NCBI GenBank assembly: GCA_016183365.1
Contig: JACPES010000003.1
Location: forward strand, 13,726 to 77,725
DNA: 64,000 bases
Origin: Candidatus Collierbacteria bacterium
GTDB taxonomy: Bacteria > Patescibacteriota > Microgenomatia > UBA1400 > JACPES01
Direction: 5' to 3'
Position numbers and translations under genes: made by a program. The notes under the pieces were generated by a model that had not been told where the DNA came from, ran no database searches, and saw only the letters and a program-made list of their open reading frames with translations. Shown here one piece after another: positions 12,409 to 34,177 of the stretch. Position 1 is the stretch's first letter; each line of letters starts with the position of its first letter.

Positions 12409-12411
12409 TAA

Positions 12412-16420: not shown

Positions 16421-16424
16421 AGCG

Positions 16425-17474
16425 TTATCCTCCGTTCCTTCCCAACATAGACTTTAAAACACGCAAAAGTATGCCAATGTCAGCTCCGGGAGGAATCAAT
16501 CCGATGTCAGGCGAAAAACCCAAAGCGTCATCTCTTCTGAGTCTTTCGTATAGATTGATTAATGATCCGTTCTGTTTTTCTAAATCATTTGGAAATTGAC
16601 CAACTAGTGTCTGTCTCAACTCAACAAGGAAATTAGCAGCAATCTGTTCACCTGTATTCTGTCGATCTGAACTAAGTTTTAGTACATTCTCTATCGCAAA
16701 TTGATGTTGAACCTCTTCACCTAAACGTAGTAATATAACACGCAGCTCGCTCCTATTTCCATTCCATGCCGATAAATTCCCAGAAAGTCGTCTGGGGTTA
16801 GCGTCAATTTCTTTTATCATGCTCTGTAGAGTGAGAAGTGTTCTGTTTTTATCTATTCCAAGATTTCGTTGAAGGCCAGCTAGCCACTGTTGCTGTTCTG
16901 ACGGAAGCCCTATACGCCAATCAGCCGGTTGAATAGCCGCCTGCGGTTCGGGCGGCGACGTCGCCGGACGGCGGGCCTCGCGGATAATTTCCTCAATCGG
17001 CCGCCTGTCGCCCCCGGCTTGAGCCGCCCTAATCGCTTCGTAAATTTTCCGATATTCTTCAAAAGTACAAAGTGGCTTCCCGCCAACCGTTATCTGTTCT
17101 CCGTCACCCAAATCCTTCTGCCGCTGGCTCTCGATATATTGACCTATCTTATCAAGATTTACCTGCCCCGCCATCCCCGCAAAATATTTCTCCACCGGAT
17201 CGACCCCCCCCCCTCCCCCCATCTCCTCCGGATTTGATTCGTCCACCTTTCCCGCCGCCCGCAATTGTTCCAGCGGAGTCGTCGCCGGCCCAAACATTTG
17301 TTCGACATCGGCAGGCCCCAAATCCCTCACTTCGCCAACTCCCGCGTTCGCCTCGTGATTAGTTCCAAGCTGCGGAGCTGTACCTTCCGCCAGTCCGGCC
17401 GGAAACTGTCCTACCGGTAGCCCCTCCGGTCTTTGTCCTGGTGATAATTGTTCTGTGTTCATCTGATCAGGCAT
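16425..17474 (-). CDS. Hypothetical protein (349 aa)
   Basis: Intact ORF with a Gly/Pro-rich N-terminal region; tightly linked to its neighbours. Confidence 0.45.
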   Translation of the reverse strand: MPDQMNTEQLSPGQRPEGLPVGQFPAGLAEGTAPQLGTNHEANAGVGEVRDLGPADVEQMFGPATTPLEQLRAAGKVDESNPEEMGGGGGVDPVEKYFAGMAGQVNLDKIGQYIESQRQKDLGDGEQITVGGKPLCTFEEYRKIYEAIRAAQAGGDRRPIEEIIREARRPATSPPEPQAAIQPADWRIGLPSEQQQWLAGLQRNLGIDKNRTLLTLQSMIKEIDANPRRLSGNLSAWNGNRSELRVILLRLGEEVQHQFAIENVLKLSSDRQNTGEQIAANFLVELRQTLVGQFPNDLEKQNGSLINLYERLRRDDALGFSPDIGLIPPGADIGILLRVLKSMLGRNGG

Positions 17475-17519
17475 TGAGAAGATTATAGCAATGTGAAGAG
17501 ATAGCTACAAACAGAAAAA

Positions 17520-18095
17520 TTACATCCCGTGATCCCTCGGCTCATAAACGGGATTAAAACATCTATGTCTACCCTGCGCAATCTGTTCAGCCAAGCGATT
17601 TTCGATCTTCTCAAGCAATGCCGGATCTTTCACCAAGAACAAATCACTTTTACTATTAACAATCACCGATGCTGCTTCTACCCAAATCTTATTCGGATTA
17701 TCAATTTCTAATTCAACTCCAAGTTTAGTTGTTGTTTCTCCTTCTCCCCTGTCTTTTTCCACAAAAAACCCAACTGTTTCGGCATGATACATTCCACCCT
17801 CTTTATTTTTAAGATCGTAACAATCTACAATCCCCTTTCGTATATGCAATTCGACTGCCGGATCAACCTCCTTAAGAACGCCCAAAACATCTACTAAAAC
17901 TCTTTGGACGCCGGTGGCCTCAAGGGCTTTTTTCCCTTTCTCAAATCTAACCTTTTCCAAGGCCTCTTGTTGTCGTGTTTTTTCTTGATACTCAATGAGC
18001 AATTTGCGCTGCTCCTCCTCCTGCAGCCGTAACTCCGCCGCCTTTTCAGCTTCAGCCCGCTGAATAATTTGTTGGACTTTCTCTTTAATACTCAT
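17520..18095 (-). CDS. Hypothetical protein (191 aa) with an N-terminal coiled coil
   Basis: N-terminus is rich in E, K and Q (AEAEKAAELRLQEEEQRKLLIEYQEKTRQQEALEK). Confidence 0.45.
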   Translation of the reverse strand: MSIKEKVQQIIQRAEAEKAAELRLQEEEQRKLLIEYQEKTRQQEALEKVRFEKGKKALEATGVQRVLVDVLGVLKEVDPAVELHIRKGIVDCYDLKNKEGGMYHAETVGFFVEKDRGEGETTTKLGVELEIDNPNKIWVEAASVIVNSKSDLFLVKDPALLEKIENRLAEQIAQGRHRCFNPVYEPRDHGM

Positions 18096-18129
18096 ATATA
18101 AAATAAAATTTCGGATTGTAAATACCGTC

Positions 18130-19245
18130 TTATCTTTCCATTCCAGCTAAAATGTCCACCATTGCCCTCTTAACATTTGTCTCGTTAGGCTGAGCGATTA
18201 GCTTTCCTCCAAGATTTGCTTCAACCGTTACATAGAGACCTAATTTACCATCAGTTTTCATCGTACTAAAACGAATGGCAAAAGTATCCCGGGAAGACTC
18301 TGGTAGATAAAATTCATCTCCTTCTTTGGCCGGATAAGAAAATCCAAAACATTTCTCTGCTAAATACTTAAAACACCTTTTTTGTGTAATCTCAATTGCG
18401 ATTTCATCTCTAAGACTAATGACGTTTTCAGGTGGGGTGTTGACAATAATATGCTGAGATAGTTCTTTCCCTGTATCTAAGAACGACATCGGCTGGCCAC
18501 AAAACGCCGTAATAGACAAGGTTGGCACCCCCTTGTTAACTCCTATGGCCTTTGCGGCTAAACGGTAAGGTGGCTTACTATCCATATCTTCGATAAAAAA
18601 ACCTTTCCCTGCAAATCTATTCGAACCATCGCTTGTTAGATAATTAGTCGACTCCGATATTAATTGCGGAACGTGTAATCTCTCTAAGGAATCAACTGAT
18701 TCTCTGCACATGGGCGAGTCTGCGCTAATTTTTTTTAATTTATTACTAATTATCTCCGGGCGTAACTGCGCCAAGGCTTCTTCTTGTTCTTTTTTCTTCT
18801 TCGCTTCAGCTTCACCCTCTCGCGTACTTCTCAATGCTTGCACCTCATCTATTAGAGATATTAGAGATGGCTCCGTTCCTATGCCAGCGAGGGGGATGGT
18901 CACCTCAGGTATTACTTGTTGTTTGCGTACGCGGATTTCTTCTAGTCTAGCCCTATAATCAGCAAGTAAAATATCTGCTCCTTGAACTTTCACCGTCTTA
19001 ACGCCGCGTTGTGTTTGCTCATCAGCCCACTGAAGAAATTTATTTGTTTGATCTGCTCCCGCCGTTTCGACTTTACCAAAGTAATCAGCAAATGGATCAT
19101 CTCCGCCGCCCATCGCTTTCGGATTAAAACCAATCTCGACGCCCGCAGCGGTAAGTCTAGCGAGCGCTTCAATTCCGGCAGCAGAACCGGAGCCAAGGTA
19201 GGGAAGATTTTCTTCTAATCTTTTCACTTTATACGAGTATATCAA
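18130..19245 (-). CDS. Hypothetical protein (371 aa), first gene of the operon
   Basis: Starts at a TTG at 19245. Its 5' region (19248-19294) is near-identical to 20716-20762. Confidence 0.45.
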   Translation of the reverse strand: MIYSYKVKRLEENLPYLGSGSAAGIEALARLTAAGVEIGFNPKAMGGGDDPFADYFGKVETAGADQTNKFLQWADEQTQRGVKTVKVQGADILLADYRARLEEIRVRKQQVIPEVTIPLAGIGTEPSLISLIDEVQALRSTREGEAEAKKKKEQEEALAQLRPEIISNKLKKISADSPMCRESVDSLERLHVPQLISESTNYLTSDGSNRFAGKGFFIEDMDSKPPYRLAAKAIGVNKGVPTLSITAFCGQPMSFLDTGKELSQHIIVNTPPENVISLRDEIAIEITQKRCFKYLAEKCFGFSYPAKEGDEFYLPESSRDTFAIRFSTMKTDGKLGLYVTVEANLGGKLIAQPNETNVKRAMVDILAGMER

Positions 19246-19247
19246 AC

Positions 19248-19294
19248 GAAGTCAAGTTTTGAAGTCCAAAAGCATTTTCGCCGTCCCGCCTCCG
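19248..19294. repeat. 47-nt shared 5' leader repeat, copy 1 (start of gene 18130..19245)
   Basis: TATATCAAACGAAGTCAAGTTTTGAAGTCCAAAAGCATTTTCGCCG matches 20716-20762 with 2-3 mismatches. On the coding (minus) strand it reads ...GCTTTTGGACTTCAAAACTTGACTTCGTTTGATATA and includes the TTG start. Confidence 0.6.
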
Positions 19295-19503
19295 ACCGAC
19301 TTCCCAAAAACGGCAATCTCCCCGCCCCGATCTCGGTCGCCTGCCTCCCTTCCGACAGCATCCCCGGTGTTGCTCCTTGTTCTATCTTTGACATATTATC
19401 CATAGGGCAGAAAAATCTTGACAACAATTATATCTTATGGTACATTATCCTTGTTCGTGACCCGCAAGGGTTGTGCGGATAAGACTTAAGCCGCAAGCGA
19501 GTT

Positions 19504-19731
19504 TTATTTCTTCAATCGCAGAAAATCCTCCACCGTCAATCTTGCTCTCTTAATTTGAGATCTAAGCAATCCCGGGGCTAATTCTTTATGATCTGGAATC
19601 GATAAAATCGGAAAACCCGGAGTCGGATGTTCTAAAATGATGTGACTCCCTGCCTGGCGCGCTCGACAATAACCTACTTTCTCAAAACGTTTGACCGCTT
19701 CTCTGCCGGAAATATTGCTTAATTGACCCAT
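19504..19731 (-). CDS. hicA: HicA-family toxin, intact
   Basis: QAGSHIILEHPTPGFPILSIPDHKELAPGLLRSQIKRARLTVEDF matches the HicA/YcfA family. Its start lies 4 nt after the hicB stop. Confidence 0.8.
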   Translation of the reverse strand: MGQLSNISGREAVKRFEKVGYCRARQAGSHIILEHPTPGFPILSIPDHKELAPGLLRSQIKRARLTVEDFLRLKK

Positions 19732-19734
19732 GCA

Positions 19735-19962
19735 TCAAATGGCGACTTGAATTCTGGTAAAACCGAGGTCTCCCACCGGAAACGTTTTTTCTGATTTTTT
19801 CTCCAGAACCTTCATGTAACCGTTAACCGCCTCTTTAATATTCTTAATCGCCTCCCGCTTGGTTTTCCCTTGAGACATGCAGCCGGGAAGACTGGGTATA
19901 TCAATTACGTATCCACCATATTCCAAATCATATTCAATATAAGCCTGAAATGATTTTTTCAT
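19735..19962 (-). CDS. hicB: HicB-family antitoxin
   Basis: YVIDIPSLPGCMSQGKTKREAIKNIKEAVNGYM is a UPF0150/HicB signature. Confidence 0.8.
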   Translation of the reverse strand: MKKSFQAYIEYDLEYGGYVIDIPSLPGCMSQGKTKREAIKNIKEAVNGYMKVLEKKSEKTFPVGDLGFTRIQVAI

Positions 19963-20039
19963 GGTTTAATCATATCATAATTTCAACCTTCATCTTCTGC
20001 CCCCGAATTCTCTTCCGCCCCCAACGCCGCTTGGCTGCC

Positions 20040-20105
20040 TACTGATAAAAGTTCTGATGATTTCATTTCTCCGTCAGGCATTAGGGAGATTATAGCAACG
20101 ATAGT
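20040..20105 (+). repeat. About 65-nt element upstream of a hicB gene, copy 1
   Basis: CTGATAAAAGTTCTGATGATTTCATTTCTCCGTCAGGCATTAGGGAGATTATAGCAACGATAGTC, compared with 21553-21618. The AGATTATAGCAA motif also occurs at 17481. Confidence 0.45.
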
Positions 20106-20274
20106 CTATTCCACGCAAAATCAATTTGAATTATGCTTTCAGGAACCAAATAGTGTCGTTAGCTCCTATAAAGATTACTTAAGTGGATTCTGGTAGTGGT
20201 GCCGTCAGTTCGTTTTCGTCGAGCTAGACGAAGAACTTCACGTCGGCAACGGCAAATTTATTACTTTCGTATTC

Positions 20275-20733
20275 CTATATAGCCGCATCAGTCCATTGGT
20301 TTTCTCTGATTACCTTTAACACTCTTTGGGGTCCACCTCTAGCCTTTACCCACTTTTCGATAGAGCCCTTAGTCCTCTCTGCTCTTTCTATTTCCTCCCA
20401 AGAGAGAGGAAGAGGAGCAACAAATGGTTCGTCGCCTGCGCCCATGTCGATTAATTCCTCTTGCTTGAAGTTACAAGTCGTTGGAATATATTGTTTCCAA
20501 CTAATTTTAACTGGAGGGGAAATTGCCTCGCGTAACCGAGACAACATCCATGTTGCTGTCTCGTCAGATACTCTTCCTGCCTTAACTTCTCCGTCTAAGT
20601 ATAAGAGGAATATTTTTGCAGGTAAACGAGAATTGGAATCAGGTTGCCAAATCTGATTTCCAAAAGAATCTAATGGATTAAATGTTTCACCTAGTGGCAT
20701 AGATATTACTATAACTATATCAAACGAAGTCAA
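20275..20733 (-). CDS. Hypothetical protein (152 aa)
   Basis: Starts at a TTG at 20733. It shares its 47-nt 5' leader and first codons with gene 18130..19245. Confidence 0.4.
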   Translation of the reverse strand: MTSFDIVIVISMPLGETFNPLDSFGNQIWQPDSNSRLPAKIFLLYLDGEVKAGRVSDETATWMLSRLREAISPPVKISWKQYIPTTCNFKQEELIDMGAGDEPFVAPLPLSWEEIERAERTKGSIEKWVKARGGPQRVLKVIRENQWTDAAI

Positions 20734-20762
20734 GTTTTGGGGTCCAAAAGCATTTTCGCCGC
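20716..20762. repeat. 47-nt shared 5' leader repeat, copy 2 (start of gene 20275..20733)
   Basis: TATATCAAACGAAGTCAAGTTTTGGGGTCCAAAAGCATTTTCGCCG. Confidence 0.6.
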
Positions 20763-20926
20763 CTCGCCGGCAACCGACAGCGGTTACAAAATGTTTCCAC
20801 CGCGCCCCTCGCGCCCTGCCCGCTCGCCCGCATTCAGCTCTGCTGATTGAGGCGTCGCCGCCAACGCCGCCATTCCTTGTCCCGGTTGCAGTTCTTTCAT
20901 ATCATTTTCACTCATAGGCAGCTCAT

Positions 20927-20955
20927 TGACAATTTTAACCTCTCGTGTTATATTA
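20927..20955 (+). promoter_or_regulatory. Sigma70-like promoter motif (TTGACA, 17-nt spacer, TATATT)
   Basis: TTGACA at 20927-20932, a 17-nt spacer, then TATATT at 20950-20955. Confidence 0.3.
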
Positions 20956-20966
20956 TATCCAATCAC

Positions 20967-22974: not shown

Positions 22975-23060
22975 AAAAGGTTAAAAGGCTAACAGGCTAA
23001 AAGGTTAAAAAGGTTAACGGGTTAGAAAGGTTAGAAAAATTAAAAAGTTGAAAAGGCTGA
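22975..23060. repeat. Degenerate AAAGGTT/AAAGGCT tandem array (left flank of the four-helix-bundle gene)
   Basis: GGTTAAAAGGCTAACAGGCTAAAAGGTTAAAAAGGTTAACGGGTTAGAAAGGTTAGAAAAATTAAAAAGTTGAAAAGGCTGAAAA. The reverse complement of this array recurs at 23462-23570, 22290-22335 and 37093-37140. Confidence 0.6.
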
Positions 23061-23458
23061 AAATACAACAAACCATGCAAACCAATAAAGGATATTTTAG
23101 TATTGAGGACACCGGCACGTATAAATTAGCGCATAAAGCTGGAGCAATTGTATGGAACGAAGTCCAAAAATGGTCATGGTTGGCCAAACGAACCTTAGGG
23201 GCTCAATGGATTAATTCAACTGATTCCGTTTCTGCAAATTTAGTAGAAGGTTTCGGAAGATTCCATAAAAAGGATCGCGTTAAGTTCTACTATAACGCCA
23301 AAGGATCAGCATTAGAAAGCCTCGAATGGGCGCGAAAAGCAATAGAAAGAAAGTTAATCGACGAATCAAAGGCAAAAGAAATTATTGCAATCCTAGAACA
23401 GCTTCCTCGAGAGATAAATTTTCAGATAAAATATTCTATGGAGAAATTAAAGAAGTAA
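23048..23458 (+). CDS. Four-helix-bundle protein (23S rRNA intervening-sequence protein family)
   Basis: Signature WINSTDSVSANLVEGFGRFHKKDRVKFYYNAKGSALESLEWARKAIERKLI. Flanked by inverted arrays of AAAGGTT-type repeats (22975-23060 and 23462-23570). Confidence 0.65.
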   Translation: MKRLKIQQTMQTNKGYFSIEDTGTYKLAHKAGAIVWNEVQKWSWLAKRTLGAQWINSTDSVSANLVEGFGRFHKKDRVKFYYNAKGSALESLEWARKAIERKLIDESKAKEIIAILEQLPREINFQIKYSMEKLKK

Positions 23459-23559
23459 TTTTATTTTTTGAGCCTTTTCAACCTTTCTATCCTTCTAACT
23501 TTTCGGTTTTCTTTTTTAACCTTTTTGGCCTTTCCAGCCTTTTTAACCTTCTGACCTTT

Positions 23560-23862
23560 TTATCCTGCCTTCAAATACCCGTCCGCAAAGGCTTCCTGTG
23601 CCCGTTGCACGAGTTGGTCAATTGTCATTCCCGTCCTCTCCGCGAACAGCTCTTCCATCCGCTTTTTGGCCTGCTCCTCATCACCAATCGCTTCCACTTC
23701 TTTCATATCCTCTTCCGTCAAACTCGTCATTAAAGCCGCGTACACGTCCAAGGCCGACAATTTCGCCACCCCGGACAACAACTGCCCGACCTCTTCGTCG
23801 GTCTTTCCCTCGGTTTTAAGTTTGGCAAGCCAATCAGAAAAGACTGTTGTTGGTTGATTCAT
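23560..23862 (-). CDS. Small acidic helical protein (100 aa)
   Basis: Intact ORF, last gene of a 3-gene operon that overlaps the upstream gene by 4 nt. Confidence 0.4.
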   Translation of the reverse strand: MNQPTTVFSDWLAKLKTEGKTDEEVGQLLSGVAKLSALDVYAALMTSLTEEDMKEVEAIGDEEQAKKRMEELFAERTGMTIDQLVQRAQEAFADGYLKAG

Positions 23863-25166
23863 TTTATTACCGGCCCAATGACATTATTAAGCAAATTACT
23901 AGCAGCTTCAAGATCTCCCATATTCGCAGCCCGAATCGCTTGAGCTTCCGGACTATTAAAACCTCTCAAGGCTTCAACCGCTGCTCGTCCACCTTCAGTA
24001 TAAGTCGCTCCGCTGCCAGTCACCACTTTATCAATATTATCGAAAATCGGCCGCAGAGCGTCAGCTGCTGCTTTAATTGCTCCTTGGTTGAGATTATTAA
24101 CCTTATCTCCAATAGCCCTGAAAAGAACATTTGTTACTTCTCCGCGATGCGGGACATTTCCAATCATTTGATAAATCGCTTCTGAAATCGTGTGTTTTGG
24201 CATATTGGCCGCCAATTCCGCCACCGTCGGCCCCTGTTGCAGGGCTGCTATCCTCGCCACCTCGGCGGTTTGGGCAGCAGCTTGAGCCGCAGCTCCCTGG
24301 GCAGCTTCTGCCATTTCTCTCGCCTGTGGAGAAAGAACTACCGGCGACTGTGGCAAATTCGCGTCCGAAACCCTGTGATAATAATCTCCAATTTCGTTAC
24401 CGCCGTGGACAGGCATCGCAGGTGTCGGACCGCCGGGACCCTCTCCCGAACCACCACCTATCACTGCCGGCTGGGCGGCGGCATGTGCCTGAAACAAGCG
24501 GTCTAACCCTTCAGCGCCAACAATCCCAATCCCGGCCGAAGCGGATATTTGGGCAATTAACAATCCCGTTCCCCTTCTGGCCGCTGCTTCACGCGCCAAA
24601 CCGGCAAAGCGGGGATGAATCCTCTCGGCTTGTGATAATACCTCAAGAAATCCTTCTGCCAAAAACCCGCCGATCATTCCGCCGCCAACAAATAATTTCA
24701 GCGCCTGATGCAACTGCGGAACAGTTTCCCACAAGATTCCGGAAAATATCGCTGGTCCGAGCATCAGCGCTCCCTCTTTGGCCGCATTTTTCCAATCCAC
24801 ATCTCTTAACCAACCTACCAATCTATTTTGAATTCTTTCTTCAACTTCCTCTTCTGATTCACCGGCCGGAGAAATTATCACTTCTCCCATCGCCTCTTCC
24901 GCCGTCGGTTCGTCTAAAACCGGTTTTTCCTGAAGTTGCACGGACGGAAAAACTTCTTCTGCTCCGGCCGGCTCAAAAGTTAAACTATTCAAGCTCGCCA
25001 AAACCCCGCTTATATCCCATGCTCTGAAACTGTTCATTTCATCCGCGGACAAATCCGCAACCGACAGCCTTCTCGACTCTGCTGTCGGAACAAAATCCAA
25101 ACCTGCTCTTGCTTCCTGAAGACTTAATCCATCAAGTTGGGCCAACGCTTCCGGAGATAGGCTCAT
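23859..25166 (-). CDS. Ala/Gly-rich hypothetical protein (435 aa)
   Basis: Low-complexity A/G/E-rich protein with no signal peptide. Overlaps both neighbours by 4 nt. Confidence 0.4.
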   Translation of the reverse strand: MSLSPEALAQLDGLSLQEARAGLDFVPTAESRRLSVADLSADEMNSFRAWDISGVLASLNSLTFEPAGAEEVFPSVQLQEKPVLDEPTAEEAMGEVIISPAGESEEEVEERIQNRLVGWLRDVDWKNAAKEGALMLGPAIFSGILWETVPQLHQALKLFVGGGMIGGFLAEGFLEVLSQAERIHPRFAGLAREAAARRGTGLLIAQISASAGIGIVGAEGLDRLFQAHAAAQPAVIGGGSGEGPGGPTPAMPVHGGNEIGDYYHRVSDANLPQSPVVLSPQAREMAEAAQGAAAQAAAQTAEVARIAALQQGPTVAELAANMPKHTISEAIYQMIGNVPHRGEVTNVLFRAIGDKVNNLNQGAIKAAADALRPIFDNIDKVVTGSGATYTEGGRAAVEALRGFNSPEAQAIRAANMGDLEAASNLLNNVIGPVIK

Positions 25167-27043
25167 TTTCCTCCACCAGTGGCAGACTGGACCTCGGTAA
25201 TTACCGCTCCAATCGTCTTATCAGTAAAATTCATCCCCAATTCAAGCAGGAGTTCTAATAACCCCAAAAGTCCCGCCTGTTCCAACTTTTTCTTCTTCTC
25301 TCCCGTCGGCGCTCCGGTCACTCCCGTCTCATCCATTCTGCTTCTCACCGCTATTTCCGTTAATTTCCGCCCGCCCGGAGTTCCCAAGGCTCCGGCAAAA
25401 AATCCTTTGACAACTTCTTTAGCCGCTTCACCCTCTTCCATAAATTCCATCGCCGACCCGATCGCCTGATTGTATGCTTCCGCCAACCTGACTTTTTGTT
25501 CTCCTTCGGTACCACTGGTATCATTTCTCGCTTTATCCAACTCCGCCAGCGCTCCGGCAAATCCTTGTTTTCTTCTTTCAAATTTCTGCTTTGACATCTC
25601 CTCGGCTGCTTTCGGCATCGGTTCGAAGGAGGTATGAACCAACTCTTCACGTAGCACCTCTCCGGGCCTAAGCCCTCCGCCGCCGATGTAAGAGACGCCA
25701 TCAATAACTGCTTGGTTAGCCGGAACAACAGCCCCCTCTTCATCTTCAAAAGCCGGGGACAGAGGCAAATCTGCCGGAAATTCATCGACTGAAGACGGGA
25801 CAGGAGTTTCCGTAGTAACTGGCACAGGTGGCTCTTCAGCCACTTCGATAACAGGCAATTCTGGTGCGGCAATCACTTCCGGAGTTGCTTCCGCTTCAGG
25901 CGGCTCTGACATCTCCGCCGGCGCGCCTTCCTCTGACAGAACCGACGTCTCCGCCACTGTCACCGCTTCTGGGCTAGAGGTTTTAGCTTCATCAGCCAAC
26001 CGAAGTTGCGCTAGCTCCCACTGTGTTAATAATGTTCCCTCCGCTTGTTTCCGTCTAATTTGTGCCACTGGATCTTCCGGCGCCATTGGCGGTTCTCCGA
26101 TTTCCCCTATTTCATCCTGTGGCTTTTCTGGCACTAACGCCGAGAATGTTTCAAGCTCCTGTCTTAATCGCTTTAGTTTGGCGTATTCCTCGTCACCGAT
26201 AGACTCTGCGGTCTTAATCGTCGCTATTTCCACAGCGGTCAACAACAATCCAGACTTCTGTTTTTCCTGCAAGTCACGAACTGCGGTTTTGGAATGTATT
26301 TTTGCCAGTAGGCCGGATATATCTTGTTTCAATTCTTGCAGCCGCGTTTCAACCAAAGTTCTATCTTGACCTTCCATTTGCGCTATTTCCACAGCGGTCA
26401 ACAATTTCCCGGCCGCCTTACGATCAAACACATCTTTAACAGCCGCCATTGATTTCATCTCTGAAACCACTTGCTGAACTGATTCAACGAGATCTGCGGG
26501 TTGTGCGGCGGCTTCGGCAGCTACCGACACCAGTTCAGCTGCTGGTTCAAGACCTGGAGCAGCCGGAGCTTCCCCGACTGCCTCGGGAACTGACTCAACC
26601 GGAACGGAAATTTGCGGTTCGACTTCAGCTCTCGCTTCGGAAGAAGGCGCCGGGGCTTCTGCTACCGTTAACGCTGGCGGAGCTTCTGGAGCTGGAATCG
26701 GCGCTGGCGCCTCCGTTTCTGGCAAAGGCACTTCGAAAGTCGGCGCAACTACCGCTTCTCCCTGTCCGCCCTGCAGCCAATCCGGAAATTCATCGATTAA
26801 GGTCGGGACTGCGGTTGCTACCGCCGGCGCCGGAACTTCTATCACCGCTGGTTCAGGCCTTCGCGCCAAACCAGGCGCATCTGCCGGGATCAGTTCTACT
26901 GCTTCCGGCAGAAGGGACACACCTGCAGGTTGCGGAACGGCCGTTGGAGTTTCTGTCGGCTTTTTCAGTCTCAAATTAAGAGTCCTTTTTAGAGAATCTA
27001 ATAATCCAACTACACTTGGTTTTGCTTCTGGAGAATCGGACAT
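25163..27043 (-). CDS. Pro/Ala/Glu-rich repeat protein (626 aa)
   Basis: Contains internal peptide repeats (LLTAVEIAQM, LLTAVEIATI, LLTQWELAQL) and DNA repeats (GCTATTTCCACAGCGGTCAACAA at about 26220 and 26385). No signal peptide. Confidence 0.4.
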   Translation of the reverse strand: MSDSPEAKPSVVGLLDSLKRTLNLRLKKPTETPTAVPQPAGVSLLPEAVELIPADAPGLARRPEPAVIEVPAPAVATAVPTLIDEFPDWLQGGQGEAVVAPTFEVPLPETEAPAPIPAPEAPPALTVAEAPAPSSEARAEVEPQISVPVESVPEAVGEAPAAPGLEPAAELVSVAAEAAAQPADLVESVQQVVSEMKSMAAVKDVFDRKAAGKLLTAVEIAQMEGQDRTLVETRLQELKQDISGLLAKIHSKTAVRDLQEKQKSGLLLTAVEIATIKTAESIGDEEYAKLKRLRQELETFSALVPEKPQDEIGEIGEPPMAPEDPVAQIRRKQAEGTLLTQWELAQLRLADEAKTSSPEAVTVAETSVLSEEGAPAEMSEPPEAEATPEVIAAPELPVIEVAEEPPVPVTTETPVPSSVDEFPADLPLSPAFEDEEGAVVPANQAVIDGVSYIGGGGLRPGEVLREELVHTSFEPMPKAAEEMSKQKFERRKQGFAGALAELDKARNDTSGTEGEQKVRLAEAYNQAIGSAMEFMEEGEAAKEVVKGFFAGALGTPGGRKLTEIAVRSRMDETGVTGAPTGEKKKKLEQAGLLGLLELLLELGMNFTDKTIGAVITEVQSATGGGK

Positions 27044-27173
27044 TAATTTGAATTAGATCACGCGGACAACTCGTGTGTCAACCCCTGAATAAACCCCAAA
27101 TAGTATATCATAATCTCCTTACGGTACTCGTTGCCTCGGAACGATTTTTATGTCGCCGCCTCTAACCATTTGT

Positions 27174-27537
27174 TCAAACCTCTCTTTTGTTTGTTTTGCT
27201 CGCCTCATCTGGTCCGCCACTATCCTCCGTCAGAACATAGAAAACCTTCGGCGCAGTCCCTACTTTAATTAAAATTCCAGCAGTAACCAATTTCTTTAGC
27301 TGTCGATGAATGGCAATACTCCCTATCCTTAGAAACTCTACCAAGTCGATGACTCTAGCCCGACTGTTCGCTTGGATAAAAATGTATGGCCGTCCCGCCT
27401 TTAAAAACGATTTGGTGATTTTTGGAATATTCATAAAGCCGGCTCAAGAAAAGCAATTGCAGGTATTCGCGGACCACTGTCGCGTCATTGGTCTTATATT
27501 GGCGGGAAAAAGGTGTTAATTGGGCCAGGGAAATCAT
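27174..27537 (-). pseudogene. AbiEii-like nucleotidyltransferase toxin, frameshifted and truncated
   Basis: One frame gives the N-terminus ...LYEYSKNHQIVFKGGTAIHFYPSEQSG then a stop. A second frame continues SRARVIDLVEF... (RxSxDIDL-like). The total is far shorter than a full AbiEii. It is adjacent to the abiEi-like gene. Confidence 0.4.
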
Positions 27538-28100
27538 ATTGCAAGGTTGGGATACATTTTGGCGTAATTTAGCAACTTTTTCTTATCGATTAAGGACCAG
27601 TCCAATTCATCTTTGGAAAAAGATTTTAAGCCTTTGGAGGCCAAATATGCCTGATCAAGAACGGCTTTTTCCGGGTCAGCGATTAAGAAACCCTCCTGTT
27701 TTTTGTCATAGCCCCAGAATAAATCTTTTTTGAGATGAGAATATGAATATATCTGGTTTTTTAGATTGTATTTAGCGGTTTTTAGAGATGTAACGCTGGT
27801 AACTCCAACCGCAAATTGGGATAAAATGCCGTAGTAGGAAAGAGCTGATTCAAAAGAAATATAAGAAGGCCGGTAATAATAATTGGCAATTAAAAATTGA
27901 TGCGCCGGTTTCTGGGCAAGAATGTAACAATTTTTTCCCATCTTCTCTAGGATGCCGTTTTTCAGCAATTTGGAAATGACAGAAAACGCCGACCTTTCTT
28001 TAGATATTTTTAATATATCAGCCAGTGATTCGCTGGAAAAAACGGTAATCGGAGAAATAAACAGGGTTTGGGTGGCTCGGGCTAAATTATACGTTTCCAT
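27534..28100 (-). CDS. AbiEi-family antitoxin / transcriptional regulator
   Basis: Has the conserved PSYISFESALSYYGILSQ...VTSVTSLKTAKY block typical of AbiEi-type antitoxins. A perfect 9-bp inverted repeat lies in its promoter region. Confidence 0.5.
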   Translation of the reverse strand: METYNLARATQTLFISPITVFSSESLADILKISKERSAFSVISKLLKNGILEKMGKNCYILAQKPAHQFLIANYYYRPSYISFESALSYYGILSQFAVGVTSVTSLKTAKYNLKNQIYSYSHLKKDLFWGYDKKQEGFLIADPEKAVLDQAYLASKGLKSFSKDELDWSLIDKKKLLNYAKMYPNLAI

Positions 28101-28165: not shown

Positions 28166-31100
28166 ATGGTAACCACTACCCGCGATCAAATTGCCGTCGC
28201 CGCCATCCAAGACATTCTCCGCCGTGAAGATTATCAGCCCGAACTCTTAAAAGACATGGCCAAAGCCTTGGCCAAGGCCAGGAATGTTCTGCCGCCGCCG
28301 GATGCCATCATCGTCCGGAACAAAGTTTATTCCTTAAAAACCATCGAGGAACGCCTGGTTCAATTTATCCACTATCTGCCGCCGGATAATCGTCCGGAAA
28401 TTACCGATACATCCTTCTATGACGAAAATTTCTTGAATCAATTAATTTCTATTATTGACGAAGTCTCGGGATTCGCTCCATCCCCTAAGGCAAAAGTTTC
28501 CATGGACGCGGTAGTCCCTGCTAATCTCCAAGAATTGCTCGAGGCCCAAGCCAAAGCCACCGCCGAAAAAAAACAAGCCCTCGGCCGGCCGTCGCAACTT
28601 ACGCAACAAATCAAACAAGCCCAGGAAATCGGCATCCGCAGCCAGCTTTTAAGGGTCGCCGTTTCCCGGCGCTTGTACTTGACACTGTTGGAATCTTCAT
28701 ACATCAAAGACTTGCAAGTTATCTATGGCAAAGAAACAGTCAATCAATTTTTAACGCAAAGAATTGACTTAGCCGTCAATCAGTCCATCACTGCCTTGGC
28801 GATGAACCAGCTGGGATTATCCGATCCCGCCAATGCCGCCGCCTATTTCACCTCTCAATTGGAAAAAAATCTCAAAACCGATCGCAACCTGGCAGTGGCT
28901 TTGGCCAAAACCCCCAAAATCAGCCGGAAAAACGCCTTGGTTGACGCTAAAAATTTAGCCGGGGATGCGGTTGCCGAAATCCAACCCGCCGCCGAAGCAT
29001 TTAGGGCCGAACAGGATTCCTCTCCGATTTATCGCGCCACAGCCCAAGAAATTGCCCAAGGCGAGATTGAGGCCGCCCTGGCAAAATCCGGACAACAACT
29101 TTCCAAAAAACAAGCTAGCCGTCTGGCTGATACCTTGGCTAAATACTCCGATCACTCGGACAAACAATTGCTGATTCTAAAACGGATTCTCCCCGGAATT
29201 TCACCGGAAACAGGACAGGAAATGATTGGTCGTCTTCAACCGGCTATTTCGGCTTTAGCCAGAAGCTCCGACCATCCGTCTATCGCCGAGACTATAAATG
29301 AAGCCTCGTTGATTAATTTGGCCCGGACTAATCCGGCCCTTTTCCCTTTTAGATTAATGGCGGCCATCCGCGGCAATCGGCTGTCTGACGGAGAAACCGT
29401 CGCCTTAACTGTCAGACTCTCGCAACAATTAAGGGTTTCTCTTGATTATGTCGCTCTAAGATTATCAGGGATCAATGCCAAAGATTTGCAAGGCCATCTT
29501 GTTTCTTTAACCAAAGGCCTGCCAGTATTAGGACTTTTGCCTACTCGGCCACCCATAAATCCCAATAGTCCCATTTTCAGACGCTTGAATGACGCCTTGC
29601 CCGGAGTTAGTCAGATAGATAGGGCCAAAGAAGAATTTCAATTCAATCCGATTGCTTCCGGCCTTAATCTGCGGAGCAACTGGTACTCAATAACTCACTT
29701 TTTTAATGTCGGTAAAGCTATTCGCTACAACCTGGGCCGCTTGCCATCAATCAATAGAATGGCTTCTTCCGCTCAAACCGTATTCTCCGGGTTAAGGATC
29801 CGGTCAGGAATCGCCAATTCTGCTTTCAGTTTCTTTACCTCGGTTTCCGGAGGCATTGGCAAACTTAGGTCGGCCGCCGCCTACCCTTTCCGGGCCGTAG
29901 GCTCTGTAATCTCCGCCGGCTGGAGTAAGGCCAAATCCTGGGCCGGAATCCAAGTTAAAGCCGGTCTGGCTAAGGCCGGAGCCTGGCTGGCCAAAAAAGG
30001 CGTCACTGCCGCTGCCACTAAATTAGGTCTGATAGCGGTAGGCAAGGGAGCGGCCGCGCTTTTGGCTCAAGCCGTCCCCATCGCCGGCCAGATCTTCGCC
30101 GCCGCCCTAATCGGCGGCGACATCCTCAAATTCCTCTGGAATAACCGCAAAGAAATCGGGGCTGGCTTGGCGGGGATGTTTTTCCTGGGACAAATGATTT
30201 TGGCAAAAATTCTGGGATTCCTTGGCGCTGCCGCGTGGACCTTGGGCGGGGGGATTCTTGGAGGAGTTATCGGATTCGCGATCGGCGGACCGATTGGAGC
30301 CGTCGTCGGAACTCTGGTCGGCGGCACAATCGGCTATTTGATTTCTTCCGGCGCCCTCGGTTCCGCTCTTGCCGGCGTCGCCGGGTGGCTGGGCTCGATC
30401 GCCGTCGGAATTGGCTCATTCATCGCTACGATTACTTCACCCGCCGCTCTTGCCGGCGTCGCCGGCACGGTGGCCACCGTCAGCGTCGTCGGCGCCATCG
30501 GCGGCGGGGCTTTTCTGGCAATCCAAAACCAGCATGCCCAAACCGCCGCCCTCTATGTCCAAACCGCTGCTCCAGACAGTTTCGGCCGCGGCCGGGGGGC
30601 GGATATTCCCGCTTGCTGGCCGACGTCAGGAACCATCGCCCAAGGGCCATATAACGACCGGCCGATTGTTTGCCAAAGCGGTGGCAAGGTGGTAACTTGT
30701 TCTCATGCCGCTTACAATTCCAACGCCGTCGACATTGCCAAGAGCCCTGTCGGCGAGCCGGTTTACGCCAGCCACGACGGTGTCGCCACCGCTTTCGCCT
30801 TCAGCCCGGTGGCCGAATTTGGCAATTACGTGATCGTCCAGTCTTCTCCTAAAGGTTTCCTGACTATCTATGCCCACCTCCTAGAATTCGACTTACCCAC
30901 CGGAGTTCCCACTCAAATCACCGGCGGCACGCGAATCGGCCTCATGGGTACCAGCGGTAACAGCACCGGACCACATCTGCACTATGAGCTAAATAATGAC
31001 GGACACATCGATACAATTGTGCCACAATACAATCTTTACGATACCGTCGCCTACGACCCGGTTTGCATCGGCCAGTCATCATCCTCGATCAGTGGCTGGA

Positions 31101-31768
31101 TTTCTCGGGTGTCCGGCGCCAACAACGTCATCGCCACCACTAACACCGAATACGACGCCACCGGCGGCGAGGGGATAAACGCCTGCACTTGGCTGGAAAA
31201 ACACGGTGAAGCGTCGGTGGCTGTCAACGCCAATTTCTTCGAAGCCCAAAGCACCAAGAAAATTCCTCGCGGTCCGGCGTCATACCGGCTGGATCCGATT
31301 CCCCATTCGCTGGATCCCCGCTACAGTTTTTGGAGCATTTATGCCAGTGGCTCGAACTTCACGCTTGGACCGGCAGACATTGCTACCCGGCCGCATCAGT
31401 TTGCCGTCTCCGGTTCGCCATTACTAATTCGCGGCAACACAGCGATGCCAATCCCCGATACCTCTGATGGTCCGCAGCATTTTGTCTGGCACACCAAAGA
31501 TACCCGACTAGCGATGGGCTTCACTGGCGCGTCAGCCGTGATCGTCGTTCTGGATAATGCTACGGTCAAGGACATGCAAAAATTCCTACTGTCACAGAAT
31601 ATCCAGAACGCCATCAATCTCGACGGCGGCTCGTCGGCGACGCTGTGCGAGCGAACCGGCTCGGGCGTCATATCCATCATCAGCACCGGCCGAAAGTCGG
31701 CCAACAGCATTGGCTTTATCGGCGGGACGATCGAAAAAATTACCGGCGGACTGGCTCCGGGACCCTAG
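28166..31768 (+). CDS. 1200-aa cell-wall hydrolase: cytoplasmic N-domain, glycine-zipper TM cluster, M23 peptidase and phosphodiester-glycosidase domains
   Basis: M23 motifs HDGVATAF...GTSGNSTGPHLHYE. C-terminal NAGPA-like NLDGGSSATL. The central Gly-rich region has multiple predicted TM helices (GAGLAGMFFLGQMILAKILGFLGAAAW...). It sits at the start of the second T4SS block, in the position a PrgK/VirB1 analogue would occupy. Confidence 0.65.
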   Translation: MVTTTRDQIAVAAIQDILRREDYQPELLKDMAKALAKARNVLPPPDAIIVRNKVYSLKTIEERLVQFIHYLPPDNRPEITDTSFYDENFLNQLISIIDEVSGFAPSPKAKVSMDAVVPANLQELLEAQAKATAEKKQALGRPSQLTQQIKQAQEIGIRSQLLRVAVSRRLYLTLLESSYIKDLQVIYGKETVNQFLTQRIDLAVNQSITALAMNQLGLSDPANAAAYFTSQLEKNLKTDRNLAVALAKTPKISRKNALVDAKNLAGDAVAEIQPAAEAFRAEQDSSPIYRATAQEIAQGEIEAALAKSGQQLSKKQASRLADTLAKYSDHSDKQLLILKRILPGISPETGQEMIGRLQPAISALARSSDHPSIAETINEASLINLARTNPALFPFRLMAAIRGNRLSDGETVALTVRLSQQLRVSLDYVALRLSGINAKDLQGHLVSLTKGLPVLGLLPTRPPINPNSPIFRRLNDALPGVSQIDRAKEEFQFNPIASGLNLRSNWYSITHFFNVGKAIRYNLGRLPSINRMASSAQTVFSGLRIRSGIANSAFSFFTSVSGGIGKLRSAAAYPFRAVGSVISAGWSKAKSWAGIQVKAGLAKAGAWLAKKGVTAAATKLGLIAVGKGAAALLAQAVPIAGQIFAAALIGGDILKFLWNNRKEIGAGLAGMFFLGQMILAKILGFLGAAAWTLGGGILGGVIGFAIGGPIGAVVGTLVGGTIGYLISSGALGSALAGVAGWLGSIAVGIGSFIATITSPAALAGVAGTVATVSVVGAIGGGAFLAIQNQHAQTAALYVQTAAPDSFGRGRGADIPACWPTSGTIAQGPYNDRPIVCQSGGKVVTCSHAAYNSNAVDIAKSPVGEPVYASHDGVATAFAFSPVAEFGNYVIVQSSPKGFLTIYAHLLEFDLPTGVPTQITGGTRIGLMGTSGNSTGPHLHYELNNDGHIDTIVPQYNLYDTVAYDPVCIGQSSSSISGWISRVSGANNVIATTNTEYDATGGEGINACTWLEKHGEASVAVNANFFEAQSTKKIPRGPASYRLDPIPHSLDPRYSFWSIYASGSNFTLGPADIATRPHQFAVSGSPLLIRGNTAMPIPDTSDGPQHFVWHTKDTRLAMGFTGASAVIVVLDNATVKDMQKFLLSQNIQNAINLDGGSSATLCERTGSGVISIISTGRKSANSIGFIGGTIEKITGGLAPGP

Positions 31769-31786
31769 TTTTGGAAATTCGTTACA

Positions 31787-32785
31787 ATGACAGCAGTGAA
31801 AAACAAATTAAACCAACTATTACGACTGCTGCAGACCCACTGGCTGCTTACTGTCCTGGGCCTGGTTATCATCTTAATACCCATAATTATTTTGATCCGC
31901 GGGCAAAGACCGCCCCGGGTGACTGTGCCGCCGCCAGAAATTACCGGTCAGGTTCCGAATAAAGCCGTCCGCAGCATCACCTACACTGGCCAACAGTTAA
32001 TCCTGCCAAAGACAATGGTTGTTTACCGTAACACTGCCAGTGAACTATCGCTGATGAACCTAGTCAAACGGATCGCTACCAGCCGAAATTTACCTCCCTC
32101 CCCCAACAGTTCCACCCTGTGGGTGTCTGGCGAAACCGGCGAGTATGTCCATTTGGATCAAGCCCACGGCGTGGTCACTTACGGCCAAAATTTACCACCG
32201 GAAGATGCGCCCGCTCCCCAGACAGACCGCGCTCGCCAGCTGGCCCAGCAGTGGGTAAAAGACACGCTATCGCTGACGGTCCGCCCGGATGAGAAAAATA
32301 TCAAGTATTTTGCCGTTTCCGGCTCACAACTGGTGCCGGTCGATCCCGGCAGCGCAGAGGTGATCGAGATCCCGTTGAATTTAACGATTGGCCAATACCC
32401 GGTGATGATTGGCAATGCGGCTATTCCAGTTGCCACCGTCAGCGTCGGCCGCAATCACACAATCAATCGAGCCATCCTCAAACCATTTGCCCTGACTCCG
32501 ATGTCCGCTAGCGAACTACCAACAATTGATTTATCCACCATCGTCAAAAACCTGACGGATAAAGCCGAGATTATTAGCATTATGCCGGAAGCGCCAATTG
32601 ATACCAACGCTCATCCGCCCACGGAAATTACCCTAACCGAAGTCCAAATCCAATATCGTCTCGATCCCAATACCAATCTCATCTACCCTTATGTCGCTTT
32701 TACCGGCACCGCCAAACTCCAGGGTGAATCTGTCACGGCCGACGTAAACGTGATTTCTCCCGTCGTTAACACCGCTGCCCCCTAA
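31787..32785 (+). CDS. Bitopic membrane protein, possible VirB8/TcpC/PrgL analogue
   Basis: N-terminal TM helix (LLTVLGLVIILIPIIILI) followed by a ~300-aa extracytoplasmic domain. The size and position match a VirB8-like component, but no motif confirms it. Confidence 0.3.
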   Translation: MTAVKNKLNQLLRLLQTHWLLTVLGLVIILIPIIILIRGQRPPRVTVPPPEITGQVPNKAVRSITYTGQQLILPKTMVVYRNTASELSLMNLVKRIATSRNLPPSPNSSTLWVSGETGEYVHLDQAHGVVTYGQNLPPEDAPAPQTDRARQLAQQWVKDTLSLTVRPDEKNIKYFAVSGSQLVPVDPGSAEVIEIPLNLTIGQYPVMIGNAAIPVATVSVGRNHTINRAILKPFALTPMSASELPTIDLSTIVKNLTDKAEIISIMPEAPIDTNAHPPTEITLTEVQIQYRLDPNTNLIYPYVAFTGTAKLQGESVTADVNVISPVVNTAAP

Positions 32786-32844
32786 CAACCGCGCGACCGA
32801 CAACATGATCCTCAAACAATTCCTCGAACTGGCAGACGGAATTT

Positions 32845-34035
32845 TTGGGAAGTTTCGCAAGCTTCCGTCTCTCCTTGTTACCCCTCTTCCACCAGTATAA
32901 AATTAACCCTATGATTGAACACCCTATTCCTCAAAATGTCACCAGCTACCAGTTCCGCCTCATCGGCGATATGACTTTAAAACAATTCATCGAATTGGCC
33001 GGAGGAGTAGTGGCCGGCTGGCTGATTTGGAGCCTTGATCTGCCAGCAATTATCCGGTGGCCCATGGTAATCATGGCGGTAATTTTGGGGTTTGGATTGG
33101 CGTTTATGCCCCTGGAAGATCGGCCGCTGGATCAATGGTTTATCGCCTTTTTCCGGGCCATTTACCGGCCAACCATTTTTGTCTGGAAAAAAGCTGTCCG
33201 CGATGATATTTTAAGCTTTCAGGCTAGCCCGGCAGAATCAAAATCCGTTTTAGAATCTGCGGTTAAAATGCCCACGGCCAAGCTTGAGTCTTTGTTGGCC
33301 GGCTATAAGATAAATGAGGCAGTAGAAGCCGATCCATTACTGGATGCTTGGGAAAAACGCTTGGCAGCCGTTCCGCAATTATTTTCCGAAGTCACGGTGC
33401 CTAAAAAACTAGCCGACGTAACCGTCTTTCCTCAAGTCAGGGCGGTAGATTTAAGCTATCACGTTTCGGATTTAACCCCAGTCCTCCATCCATTAACTCC
33501 ACCAGAGGATCCGGATGCCATTCTGCGGGGGGAAATTACTTTACCGGCCCACCGTCTCCGAGTCCCGCAGAATTTACCGATAGCCATTGGCGATGCCCCG
33601 GCTAAACCTGCACTTCTCGTCAAACGCGGAGATTCTTTAAGTCAAATAGGGACATCTGAAATCAAACTCCCGTCTTTTAATACGGCCGTTGTCAAGTCCA
33701 GAACCGGAGCCGTTTCGGCAACAGTAATGCAATCCTTAATCTTGCCATCCAGCCCATCTATTCCTAATGTCCTGACCGGAATTGTGGTAACTTCAGACGG
33801 ACAAATCGCTGACAATGCCATTGTTGAAATCCGGCGCCTGACCGATCATCTACCGGTTAGAGCCGTTAAATCCAATAAACTCGGACATTTTGCCATTGCC
33901 ACTCCTTTAGAAAATGGAAGTTATGAAATCCTGACGGACAAAGACGGTCTGGCCTTTGGTATACTCAAAATTGACGTCGGGGGCTTGATTATGCCGCCGA
34001 TTGAAATTAGAGCAAAAAAAGAAAAGATGTCTTGA
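32845..34035 (+). CDS. PrgI/VirB3-like membrane protein with a C-terminal beta-sandwich extension
   Basis: N-terminus YQFRLIGDMTLKQFIELAGGVVAGWLIW...PMVIMAVILGFGLAFMPLEDRPLDQWFIAFFRAIYRP matches the PrgI-family layout. It lies upstream of VirB4, as prgI does before prgJ. Confidence 0.5.
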   Translation: MGSFASFRLSLLPLFHQYKINPMIEHPIPQNVTSYQFRLIGDMTLKQFIELAGGVVAGWLIWSLDLPAIIRWPMVIMAVILGFGLAFMPLEDRPLDQWFIAFFRAIYRPTIFVWKKAVRDDILSFQASPAESKSVLESAVKMPTAKLESLLAGYKINEAVEADPLLDAWEKRLAAVPQLFSEVTVPKKLADVTVFPQVRAVDLSYHVSDLTPVLHPLTPPEDPDAILRGEITLPAHRLRVPQNLPIAIGDAPAKPALLVKRGDSLSQIGTSEIKLPSFNTAVVKSRTGAVSATVMQSLILPSSPSIPNVLTGIVVTSDGQIADNAIVEIRRLTDHLPVRAVKSNKLGHFAIATPLENGSYEILTDKDGLAFGILKIDVGGLIMPPIEIRAKKEKMS

Positions 34036-34168
34036 AGATAGAAAATAGATATTCTTGATCTTGAATTCTTGACAGCTTGACTATCTGATCAAGGAATCAA
34101 AAAATCAATCCGCCAGCCGGCGGATCAAGTTCAAGAATTTCAAGAATATCCATCTTCAAAATATCTTA
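34026..34168 (+). repeat. About 140-nt palindromic intergenic element, copy B (between the prgI-like gene and ORF 34178)
   Basis: Shares the GATGTCTTGAAG start, the CTTGATCTTGAA(TT)CTTGAC block and the ATCAAGTTCAAGAA...TATCCATCTTCAAAATATC end with copy A. Its centre is CCGCCAGCCGGCGG. Confidence 0.6.
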
Positions 34169-34177
34169 AATTAACAA

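Follow-up and report, generated by a model that had tools for sequence, protein, structure and literature searches.

What are the three overlapping genes that occupy positions 23560 to 27043 of a 64,000-nucleotide stretch of Candidatus Collierbacteria DNA (hereafter the window), and what could their products do? The original prediction had described them, from the sequence alone, as an operon of low-complexity proteins, with a cytoskeletal or scaffold-like system, substrates of a type IV secretion system (T4SS) and cell-surface mimicry proteins as candidate functions. The trio is the Collierbacteria version of an undescribed three-gene module of the Patescibacteria. The function that we favor is a tentative one, held with rather less than even confidence: the products would form a membrane-tethered structural or scaffold complex, with A as the scaffold, B as the anchor and C as the adaptor.

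The genes were called as open reading frames (ORFs) on the minus strand. A626, coding for 626 amino acids (aa), spans positions 25163-27043; its stop codon overlaps the start codon of B435 (435 aa, 23859-25166) in the tetranucleotide ATGA, and an equivalent 4-nt ATGA overlap joins B435 to C100 (100 aa, 23560-23862). Such overlaps are consistent with translational coupling of A626, B435 and C100. The concern that the frames might be artefacts of GC-rich DNA, lacking codon periodicity, could be dismissed because periodicity is present in all three (the fraction of G at codon position 1 is 0.45-0.47) and because the ratio of nonsynonymous to synonymous substitution rates (dN/dS) is low. Against homologues from other assemblies, the proportion of nonsynonymous changes (pN) lies far below that of synonymous changes (pS), with dN/dS values of 0.07-0.14 for C, 0.16-0.41 for the C-terminus of A and about 0.31-0.33 for B. 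The trio thus consists of real genes under purifying selection, forming the operon that had been described. Identical proteins are found on 8-11 independent contigs; B435 and C100 are identical to HYU89_01475 and HYU89_01470, respectively, two hypothetical proteins of a Candidatus Collierbacteria metagenome-assembled genome.

Proline, alanine, glutamate and glycine (P+A+E+G) together account for 44.2% of A626 and 40.9% of B435, versus a mean of 27.1 ± 5.1% among 48 ORFs of the window. The dominance of these residues, initially attributed to all three proteins, holds for the two larger ones and fails for C100, an ordinary acidic helical protein (33% P+A+E+G, 1% Pro) that is not of low complexity. 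The G+C content at third codon positions (GC3) is 0.445 in A626 and 0.429 in B435, close to the window mean of 0.464 ± 0.067. Since GC3 is at background and the rise is confined to codon positions 1 and 2, the locally elevated GC is amino-acid driven; horizontal transfer was dropped as its source, in line with the earlier view that the elevation is compositional. The GC3 of C100 (0.60) exceeds that of its two coupled genes and of the window; selection on codon usage in the best-conserved gene of the three could be the reason. As stated previously, no signal peptide is visible by eye in any of the three proteins.

The smallest protein is the one that leads beyond the window. C100 is an acidic five-helix protein with a net charge of -9 and an AlphaFold 2 (AF2) model at a predicted local distance difference test score (pLDDT) of 86.6. 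Its close homologues number 57 (62-100% identity; 26 invariant columns), the nearest relative being 86% identical. Among GTDB species representatives, a close C occurs in only one other, again a Collierbacteria. A profile made from the C alignment retrieved 147 clusters (50% identity, E ≤ 1e-3) from 1.84e9 representative proteins, nearly all of them full-length at about 100 aa. Those members that bear names come from Microgenomates, Pacebacteria, Saccharimonadia and other Patescibacteria; no Pfam family covers the 147 clusters, and no relatives of C were found in viral contigs. A WXG100-type substrate of a type VII secretion system was considered for C and rejected: C is a five-helix bundle without WxG, it has no Pfam match, and the window contains no EssC-like gene. 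C100 is the conserved core of the module.

Seven contigs carrying members recovered with the C profile were looked up (L019-L025). In four of them (L021-L024) nusA/infB, with a short infB of 474-509 aa, is followed in order by proteins of 307-434, 813-913 and 374-627 aa, by C and by rpsO/pnp. In L025, proteins of 822 and 361 aa precede C, which is followed by a beta-lactamase-like gene and two class A penicillin-binding protein (PBP) genes. In the near-identical L019 and L020, C lies between two proteins, each with a coiled coil and one clear transmembrane (TM) segment, adjoining mreB-mreC-PBP2. A comparable order, with a large protein (626-899 aa), a middle one (383-530 aa) and C, is found in every Collierbacteria-type locus retrieved (L001, L003, L005-L010), usually with a gene of the 23S_rRNA_IVP family next. 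B is homologous across Collierbacteria and the remote lineages (hhalign probability 97.5%, E 8e-12), as also indicated by BLAST links and by matches to a profile of its core, and the large A proteins are homologous among the infB-linked loci. Altogether, these data show that the module is widespread in the Patescibacteria, where it appears ancestral; the trio is not a local oddity but a derived copy of a phylum-wide module. C, the B core and the gene order are what remains stable in it, and the A body and the B head are what varies.

The infB-rpsO position raises the possibility that the module is an RNA- or translation-linked factor working with the surrounding nusA-infB ... rpsO-pnp genes. 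Four of the seven remote look-ups place it there, where the textbook operon has rbfA and truB. We consider this highly improbable, given that no RNA-binding or GTPase domain was found, that ribosome factors do not look like proteins with long coiled coils, exchangeable heads and hydrophobic cores or tails, and that elsewhere the module adjoins mreBCD/PBP or metabolic genes, or a variable region in Collierbacteria. Nor is there support for a derivation from the N-terminal tail of translation initiation factor 2 (IF-2), which had been named as a possible source of such low-complexity sequence: no Pfam or NCBIfam match to IF-2 was obtained, and the remote modules follow a separate short infB, which is adjacency and not homology. 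The gene after infB in these loci (L021 1350-2381; L022 2861-3784; L023 2037-3341; L024 1654-2658) codes for a conserved 307-434-aa protein that by eye is DHH/RecJ-like with degenerate catalytic motifs (RecJ-like PDB profile, E 0.05) and that ends, after a P/Q-rich linker, in a conserved P.EW..PK[IV]FTG.

Homology to a known family could not be found for any of the three proteins. A, B and C have no match in Pfam, NCBIfam, PHROGs or PADLOC, including searches of sub-regions at E up to 10, and fold comparison was equally negative. Among PDB sequence profiles, C matches only de novo designed helical repeats, an idealized-helix similarity, and the match of the A C-terminus to YjlC, the NDH-2 coupling protein, is not significant (E 0.12). 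A word-indexed protein search with A626 returned only itself, low-complexity sequence being what defeats such a search.

B435 begins with an acidic, variable N-terminus, followed by a conserved Gly-rich hydrophobic core (residues ~115-225; 24492..24824, minus strand) with three weakly hydrophobic segments and an HPRF motif, a Gly/Pro linker, an Ala/Gln helix and a swappable C-terminal helical domain, here of type 1 (residues ~305-435; 23862..24254, minus strand; alignment A2). Only this last domain reaches a mean pLDDT of 70-86 in the AF2 model. Nine homologues of B435 were found. Common to the B proteins are the Gly-rich, weakly hydrophobic core (invariant G, HP.F, GIG), the Gly/Pro linker and the Ala/Gln helix, while at least four unrelated C-terminal domains alternate in the family. 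Hydrophobic segments are present in every B examined, and in the homologues of L007, L008, L009, L023 and L025 the highest 19-residue Kyte-Doolittle mean (KD19) is 1.70-1.89, compared to 1.6 over about 19 residues as the TM criterion. A LysM head on two B variants (P0005 and L025), and on the L019 flanking proteins, was not retained: the likeness (..V.PGDT...., ..PGQ..K[IV]) is by eye only, and P0005 gave no PF01476 match at E up to 10. A polymorphic toxin-immunity pair was rejected as well. C is 68-80% identical across loci with different B head types and, since it does not co-vary with the head type, is not an immunity partner.

A626 is also acidic, with a net charge of -50. An N-terminal helix with a basic patch comes first; two P/A/E-rich stretches, the first of them disordered, then flank the three LLTAVEIA-type units, and a conserved helical domain forms the C-terminus. 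With 9.6% Pro and only 3 of 82 windows heptad-like, it is mostly disordered and not a rod. The repeats from repeated DNA that had been noticed are there: units 1 (residues 214-221; 26381..26404, minus strand) and 2 (residues 267-274; 26222..26245, minus strand) are encoded by an exact 24-nt direct repeat, and the unit alignment adds a degenerate third copy, LLTQWELA (residues 338-345; 26009..26032, minus strand), leaving eight invariant columns (V, G, LLT, E, A, L). Their resemblance to SHOCT was discarded, as the repeat region has no SHOCT match at E up to 10. The alignment-defined C-terminal domain (residues 485-626; 25166..25591, minus strand) is 82% identical to its counterpart in L010 and 44% to those in L001 and L003, with 61 invariant columns in alignment A3. 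Its last part, AGLLGLLELLLELGM...IGAVITEVQ, is a hydrophobic, amphipathic tail. In L008, L013 and L025 the equivalent tail is strongly hydrophobic, with KD19 values of 1.8-2.05 (the upper value in L008 and L025), and by eye it has the ending IIG..(V/L)..E(V/L)Q in common with A626. Collierbacteria A proteins are Pro-richer (4-10%) than the remote ones, A626 being the extreme. The latter have 1.5-1.9% Pro and 32-39% E/K/R/Q, with a 3.5-residue periodicity in 9-22 of about 110-120 windows of 56 aa.

A short tryptophan-containing motif recurs in these proteins. In A626 it reads P-D-W-L-Q (residues 87-91; 26771..26785, minus strand) in the context DEFPDWLQGG, and a decayed second copy, VDEFPADL, is present in the same protein. 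In a six-frame scan of the window and the first eighteen fetched loci, the pattern [ILFP]P[DNS]WL[KQRT] occurred only in A-type, B-type and small upstream module proteins, always in an acidic Pro/Ala-rich context and often near the N-terminus; a looser pattern also matches an unrelated PHWLS in the conserved 207-aa protein. In the remote loci, where only predicted module proteins were scanned, PDWM was seen in one B (L022). The P.EW..PK[IV]FTG at the C-terminus of the post-infB protein of L021-L024 is a related motif. Helix 1 of C reads F-S-D-W-L-A-K-L-K. No literature on an [ILF]P[DNS]WL motif was found.

How the window copy relates to those of its closest relatives can be judged from the mosaic pattern of the Collierbacteria loci. 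Identity between the window and L001 is 87% for the flanking 207-aa protein, 88% for HicB and 74% for C; it drops to 44% for A, over the last 142 residues only, and to 32% for B, over part of its length. The B of L003 has an L001-like N-terminus joined to a window-like C-terminus. In L010, the A C-terminus (82%) and the B N-terminus (76%) are window-like and the middles differ. C, in contrast, stays 62-86% identical throughout Collierbacteria while A and B are mosaics. This mosaicism of A and B reflects module swapping by recombination. B is split in L010 (8635-9936) into a 104-aa ORF ending in ...EELPDWLRSV* and a 311-aa ORF with a different core and a type-2 head. A626 itself is a fusion, because its residues 9-108 match a separate 258-277-aa gene of L001 and L010, only residues 485-626 corresponding to the large A proteins there; its middle, with the LLTAVEIA units, is strain-specific.

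In L001 (1550-6735) and L010 (75-5198), two further genes lie directly upstream on the same strand, coding for a 899-923-aa transglutaminase/von Willebrand factor A (TGase/vWA)-like protein and a 784-805-aa AAA_5 ATPase. The cluster then continues with the small 258-277-aa protein, A, B and C. The Cys-His-Asp transglutaminase-like core and the DxSxS vWA motif of the first protein were recognized by eye, without a Pfam match. One could envisage a conflict or defence module in which the MoxR-type AAA+ ATPase, the TGase/vWA-like protein, the small upstream protein, A, B and C make up a sensor-effector system of which the window keeps a remnant. The frequent AbiE, HicAB, PIN, NYN, AAA_14/DUF4143 and 23S_rRNA_IVP neighbors would fit, as would the shuffling of A and B parts, typical of conflict systems. 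This is nonetheless quite unlikely: the AAA+/vWA pair expected of a MoxR-vWA system is absent from the window, from L009 and from all remote loci, where the module sits in housekeeping neighborhoods; PADLOC has no match to A, B or C, and its matches to the AAA+ protein are marginal; no enzymatic effector domain is present; and neither the constancy of C across B head types nor the lack of relatives in viral contigs speaks for a conflict system.

Several of these features could mean that the window holds a decaying copy, drifting after loss of its partners, with A626 a fusion devoid of the ancestral function. The TGase/vWA and AAA_5 genes are missing, a helix-turn-helix (HTH) fragment and a truncated AbiEii lie upstream, A626 combines an N-terminus from a separate gene with a middle unique to the strain, and the relative in L010 has its B gene in two pieces. 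Such decay seems very improbable when the ORFs are intact, the ATGA overlaps kept, the conserved parts under purifying selection, the proteins identical on 8-11 contigs and C 86% identical to its nearest relative. The trio is rather a derived, fast-evolving, relocated and partly reduced copy of the module.

The surroundings of the trio also bear on the T4SS substrates proposed at the outset. The window belongs to the chromosome and lies near the origin (dnaA, dnaN, yidC, groEL and leuS-type genes). Two plus-strand T4SS blocks beside dnaN/dnaA enclose a 14-kb stretch of minus-strand orphan genes that includes the trio. Three PF18895 pilins (4574-8617) belong to the first block (4574-13992), together with a 954-aa secreted protein and a 526-aa polytopic one, the latter a candidate VirB6 analogue without a Pfam match; the second (28166-37092) includes a 1200-aa M23/NAGPA hydrolase, PrgI and a VirB4-like ATPase. 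No coupling protein (VirD4) is present in the window. This arrangement matches the published description of Patescibacteria T4SS loci as MPF-FATA-like, relaxase-less, often located beside dnaA and apparently repurposed away from conjugation, with substrates not known (PMC12102498). A literature search on the T4SS of Collierbacteria found nothing.

A and B could accordingly be fast-evolving effectors without Sec signals, and C an acidic secretion chaperone or adaptor handing them to the chromosomal T4SS. The position of the trio block between the two T4SS blocks, the presence of the same 526-aa and 954-aa genes next to the block in L001/L002 and L010, the size and charge of C (~100 aa, net charge -9), the contrast between mosaic, divergent A and B and a constant C, and the vacancy left by a seemingly repurposed system whose substrates are not known (PMC12102498) are all compatible with this idea. 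However, linkage to T4SS genes is seen only in the window, L001/L002 and L010, closely related genomes in which it can be inherited synteny. The trio of L009, also from Collierbacteria, has no recognizable T4SS gene within 8-10 kb. Remote modules lie between infB and rpsO or beside cell-wall genes, and the called genes of these loci include no T4SS channel components; the sole T4SS-type match is an opposite-strand TrwB/VirD4-like fragment at the edge of L019/L020. The missing coupling protein and the conserved hydrophobic core of B, atypical for soluble cargo, are further arguments against. With the module spread across the Patescibacteria, usually far from T4SS genes, the T4SS cargo reading is weakened to the point of being unlikely. 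For cell-surface mimicry we obtained no support.

The immediate neighbors of the trio are those originally listed, an abiE remnant on one side and a four-helix-bundle gene on the other. AbiEi and truncated AbiEii (27355-28100, Pfam) adjoin an 86-aa HTH ORF (27174..27434, minus strand; Pfam HTH_24 weak); more precisely, an intact AbiEi-like gene (27534-28100) is followed by a 60-aa N-terminal AbiEii remnant. The HTH ORF, 59% identical over 54 aa (tblastn) to the N-terminus of a 327-aa L001 gene located upstream of the TGase/vWA and AAA_5 genes, is taken as a remnant of that gene and so marks a deletion beside the trio; together, the HTH and AbiEii remnants look like deletion scars. On the other side are the PF05635 (23S_rRNA_IVP) four-helix-bundle gene (23048-23458, Pfam), the conserved 207-aa membrane protein, HicB and a NYN gene. 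A PF05635 gene directly follows C, in either orientation, in most Collierbacteria-type loci (window, L003-L009, L012, L018, L025), and L005 has one copy on either side of the gene for the 207-aa membrane protein. Downstream of the trio, the orphan genes (14048-20966) are mosaic too, and their products have no Pfam, PHROGs, NCBIfam or PADLOC match. Two of them, of 349 and 371 aa, have in common the motif GGG[GD][VD]DP[VF].[KD]YF and both match one L005 gene fragment; ORFs of 60 and 152 aa (20275-20966) appear to represent a 331-aa L001 gene in disrupted form.

Upstream of A626, a promoter-like site was read by eye on the minus strand (27052..27081), with TTGACA at 27081-27076, an 18-nt spacer and TCTAAT at 27057-27052. 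It ends 8 nt before the A626 ATG, so that a transcript from this putative promoter would be nearly leaderless. The consensus promoter scan did not list it, its rule demanding an A at position 2 of the -10 hexamer. At the other end, a hairpin scan found no terminator-like hairpin 3' of C100. C100 and the 23S_rRNA_IVP gene have convergent stops, and the gap between these (23513-23566) is filled by a degenerate 9-nt tandem repeat, TTTTTAGCC on the plus strand, in about 6 copies with 69% matches; it has neither a significant RNA fold (z 0.33) nor a terminator-like hairpin. Rfam and tRNA scans of the window yielded nothing.

Returning to the scaffold complex that we favor, its parts can be pictured as follows. 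A would be an elongated cytoplasmic scaffold, coiled-coil-rich in most lineages and ending in a hydrophobic tail, which in Collierbacteria has been largely remodeled into Pro/Ala/Glu-rich disordered linkers bearing the tryptophan-containing motif. B would be its membrane-associated partner, the Gly-rich hydrophobic core providing up to three weak TM-like segments, probably with the N-terminus inside, the C-terminus outside and an exchangeable C-terminal head. The orientation is a guess based on positive-inside counting on B435 and on the LysM-like head seen by eye in P0005 and L025, a head that Pfam does not confirm. C would be a small, strongly conserved cytoplasmic helical adaptor; its binding to constant elements, the tryptophan motif and/or the conserved cores, is proposed to explain its constancy in the face of variable A and B. 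Membrane insertion, the topology, formation of an A-B-C complex, reading of the motif by C and the scaffold role itself are what we infer from these features. A scaffold fits best because of the ATGA coupling, the long coiled-coil or disordered A with a hydrophobic tail, the B with weak TM-like segments and an exchangeable head, and the occasional cell-wall neighborhoods. The scaffold-like candidate of the original prediction is thereby preferred over its companions, on account of the coiled-coil-rich positional equivalents of A and the conserved, weakly hydrophobic core of B.

A number of observations weigh against this proposal. The AF2 model of B is poor overall (pLDDT 44), and the segments of B435 stay below the usual TM threshold (KD19 maximum 1.56). 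Homology between remote and Collierbacteria A proteins was not detected (hhalign probability below 3%), so that the term "same module" refers to B, C and gene order; A in the remote lineages is only a positional analogue, coiled-coil-rich there versus Pro-rich and disordered in the window. The infB-rpsO position could point to an RNA or translation role, and the MoxR-like AAA+ and vWA/TGase genes of L001 and L010, like the frequent toxin-antitoxin and defence-type neighbors, fit a conflict system.

A bolder version of the scaffold proposal, possible although we think it rather unlikely, would see in A-B-C a cytoskeletal or scaffold system associated with the envelope, specific to the Patescibacteria and inherited vertically. 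C would act as a hub reading [ILF]PDWL and P.EW..PK[IV]FTG on the disordered arms of A, of B and of the neighboring DHH-like protein, and the exchangeable head of B would be exposed on the outside. Among episymbionts, Collierbacteria included, the swapping of modules would diversify the head and the arms, so that they match the host or escape phages.

The Patescibacteria represent a large share of bacterial diversity, and no role has been assigned to most of the conserved genes that are specific to their lineages. What appeared to be an orphan operon becomes a searchable module, with about 147 C clusters at 50% identity, a homologous B partner and a fixed gene order. It reaches the Saccharimonadia, the class that includes a genetically tractable strain cited in PMC12102498, where a phylum-wide target could be tested. 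Should the Collierbacteria copies turn out to be T4SS-linked after all, they would be the first candidates for the cargo of this T4SS, which has no known substrates (PMC12102498). If instead the envelope scaffold is real, it bears on division and host contact in ultrasmall episymbionts that do without many canonical factors. For the present, the value of the trio is that of a well-delimited lead.

Comparison with known systems helps to place that lead. The VirE1-VirE2 and IcmS/IcmW pairs of type III and type IV secretion resemble the trio in that a small acidic helical protein stands beside large, fast-evolving proteins without signal peptides, here adjoining T4SS genes; they differ in that no family match exists and that the C family is phylum-wide and mostly away from T4SS genes. 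The tryptophan motif, [ILF]-P-[DNS]-W-L-[KQR], follows the same pattern of Pro, aromatic, Leu and basic residues within a disordered acidic stretch as the FtsZ C-terminal peptide, D-I-P-x-F-L-R/K, a likeness to be used as a lead, not as a test; unlike that peptide, the module motif is internal or N-terminal. A626 is reminiscent of hubs such as PopZ or MamJ in its short N-terminal helix, acidic Pro/Ala/Glu-rich linker and conserved helical C-terminal domain, yet it has no homology to them and is three to four times the length of PopZ. The remote A proteins, being 813-913 aa long, Pro-poor and heptad-periodic, resemble crescentin, FilP/Scy and the PF00038 Filament family. Assignment to that family as an intermediate-filament-like protein was rejected: A626, with its few heptad-like windows, has no match, and the L023 protein (E 6.7e-6) scores 26.4 bits, below the gathering cut-off of 40. 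The closest parallel in architecture is with the MapZ/LocZ, EzrA and ZipA-type scaffolds of monoderm division and morphogenesis, in which a cytoplasmic disordered or coiled-coil region is combined with a membrane anchor, a linker rich in Pro, Gly and Gln, and a globular head at the end. The trio would combine such parts, and some module loci adjoin mreB-mreC-PBP2 or class A PBP genes; unlike in those scaffolds, the functions would be split over three coupled genes and the hydrophobic segments are weak, and there is no sequence or fold similarity. In conclusion, the module is unannotated in the libraries searched, and it parallels known membrane-tethered scaffolds of bacteria in architecture but is a member of none of these systems.

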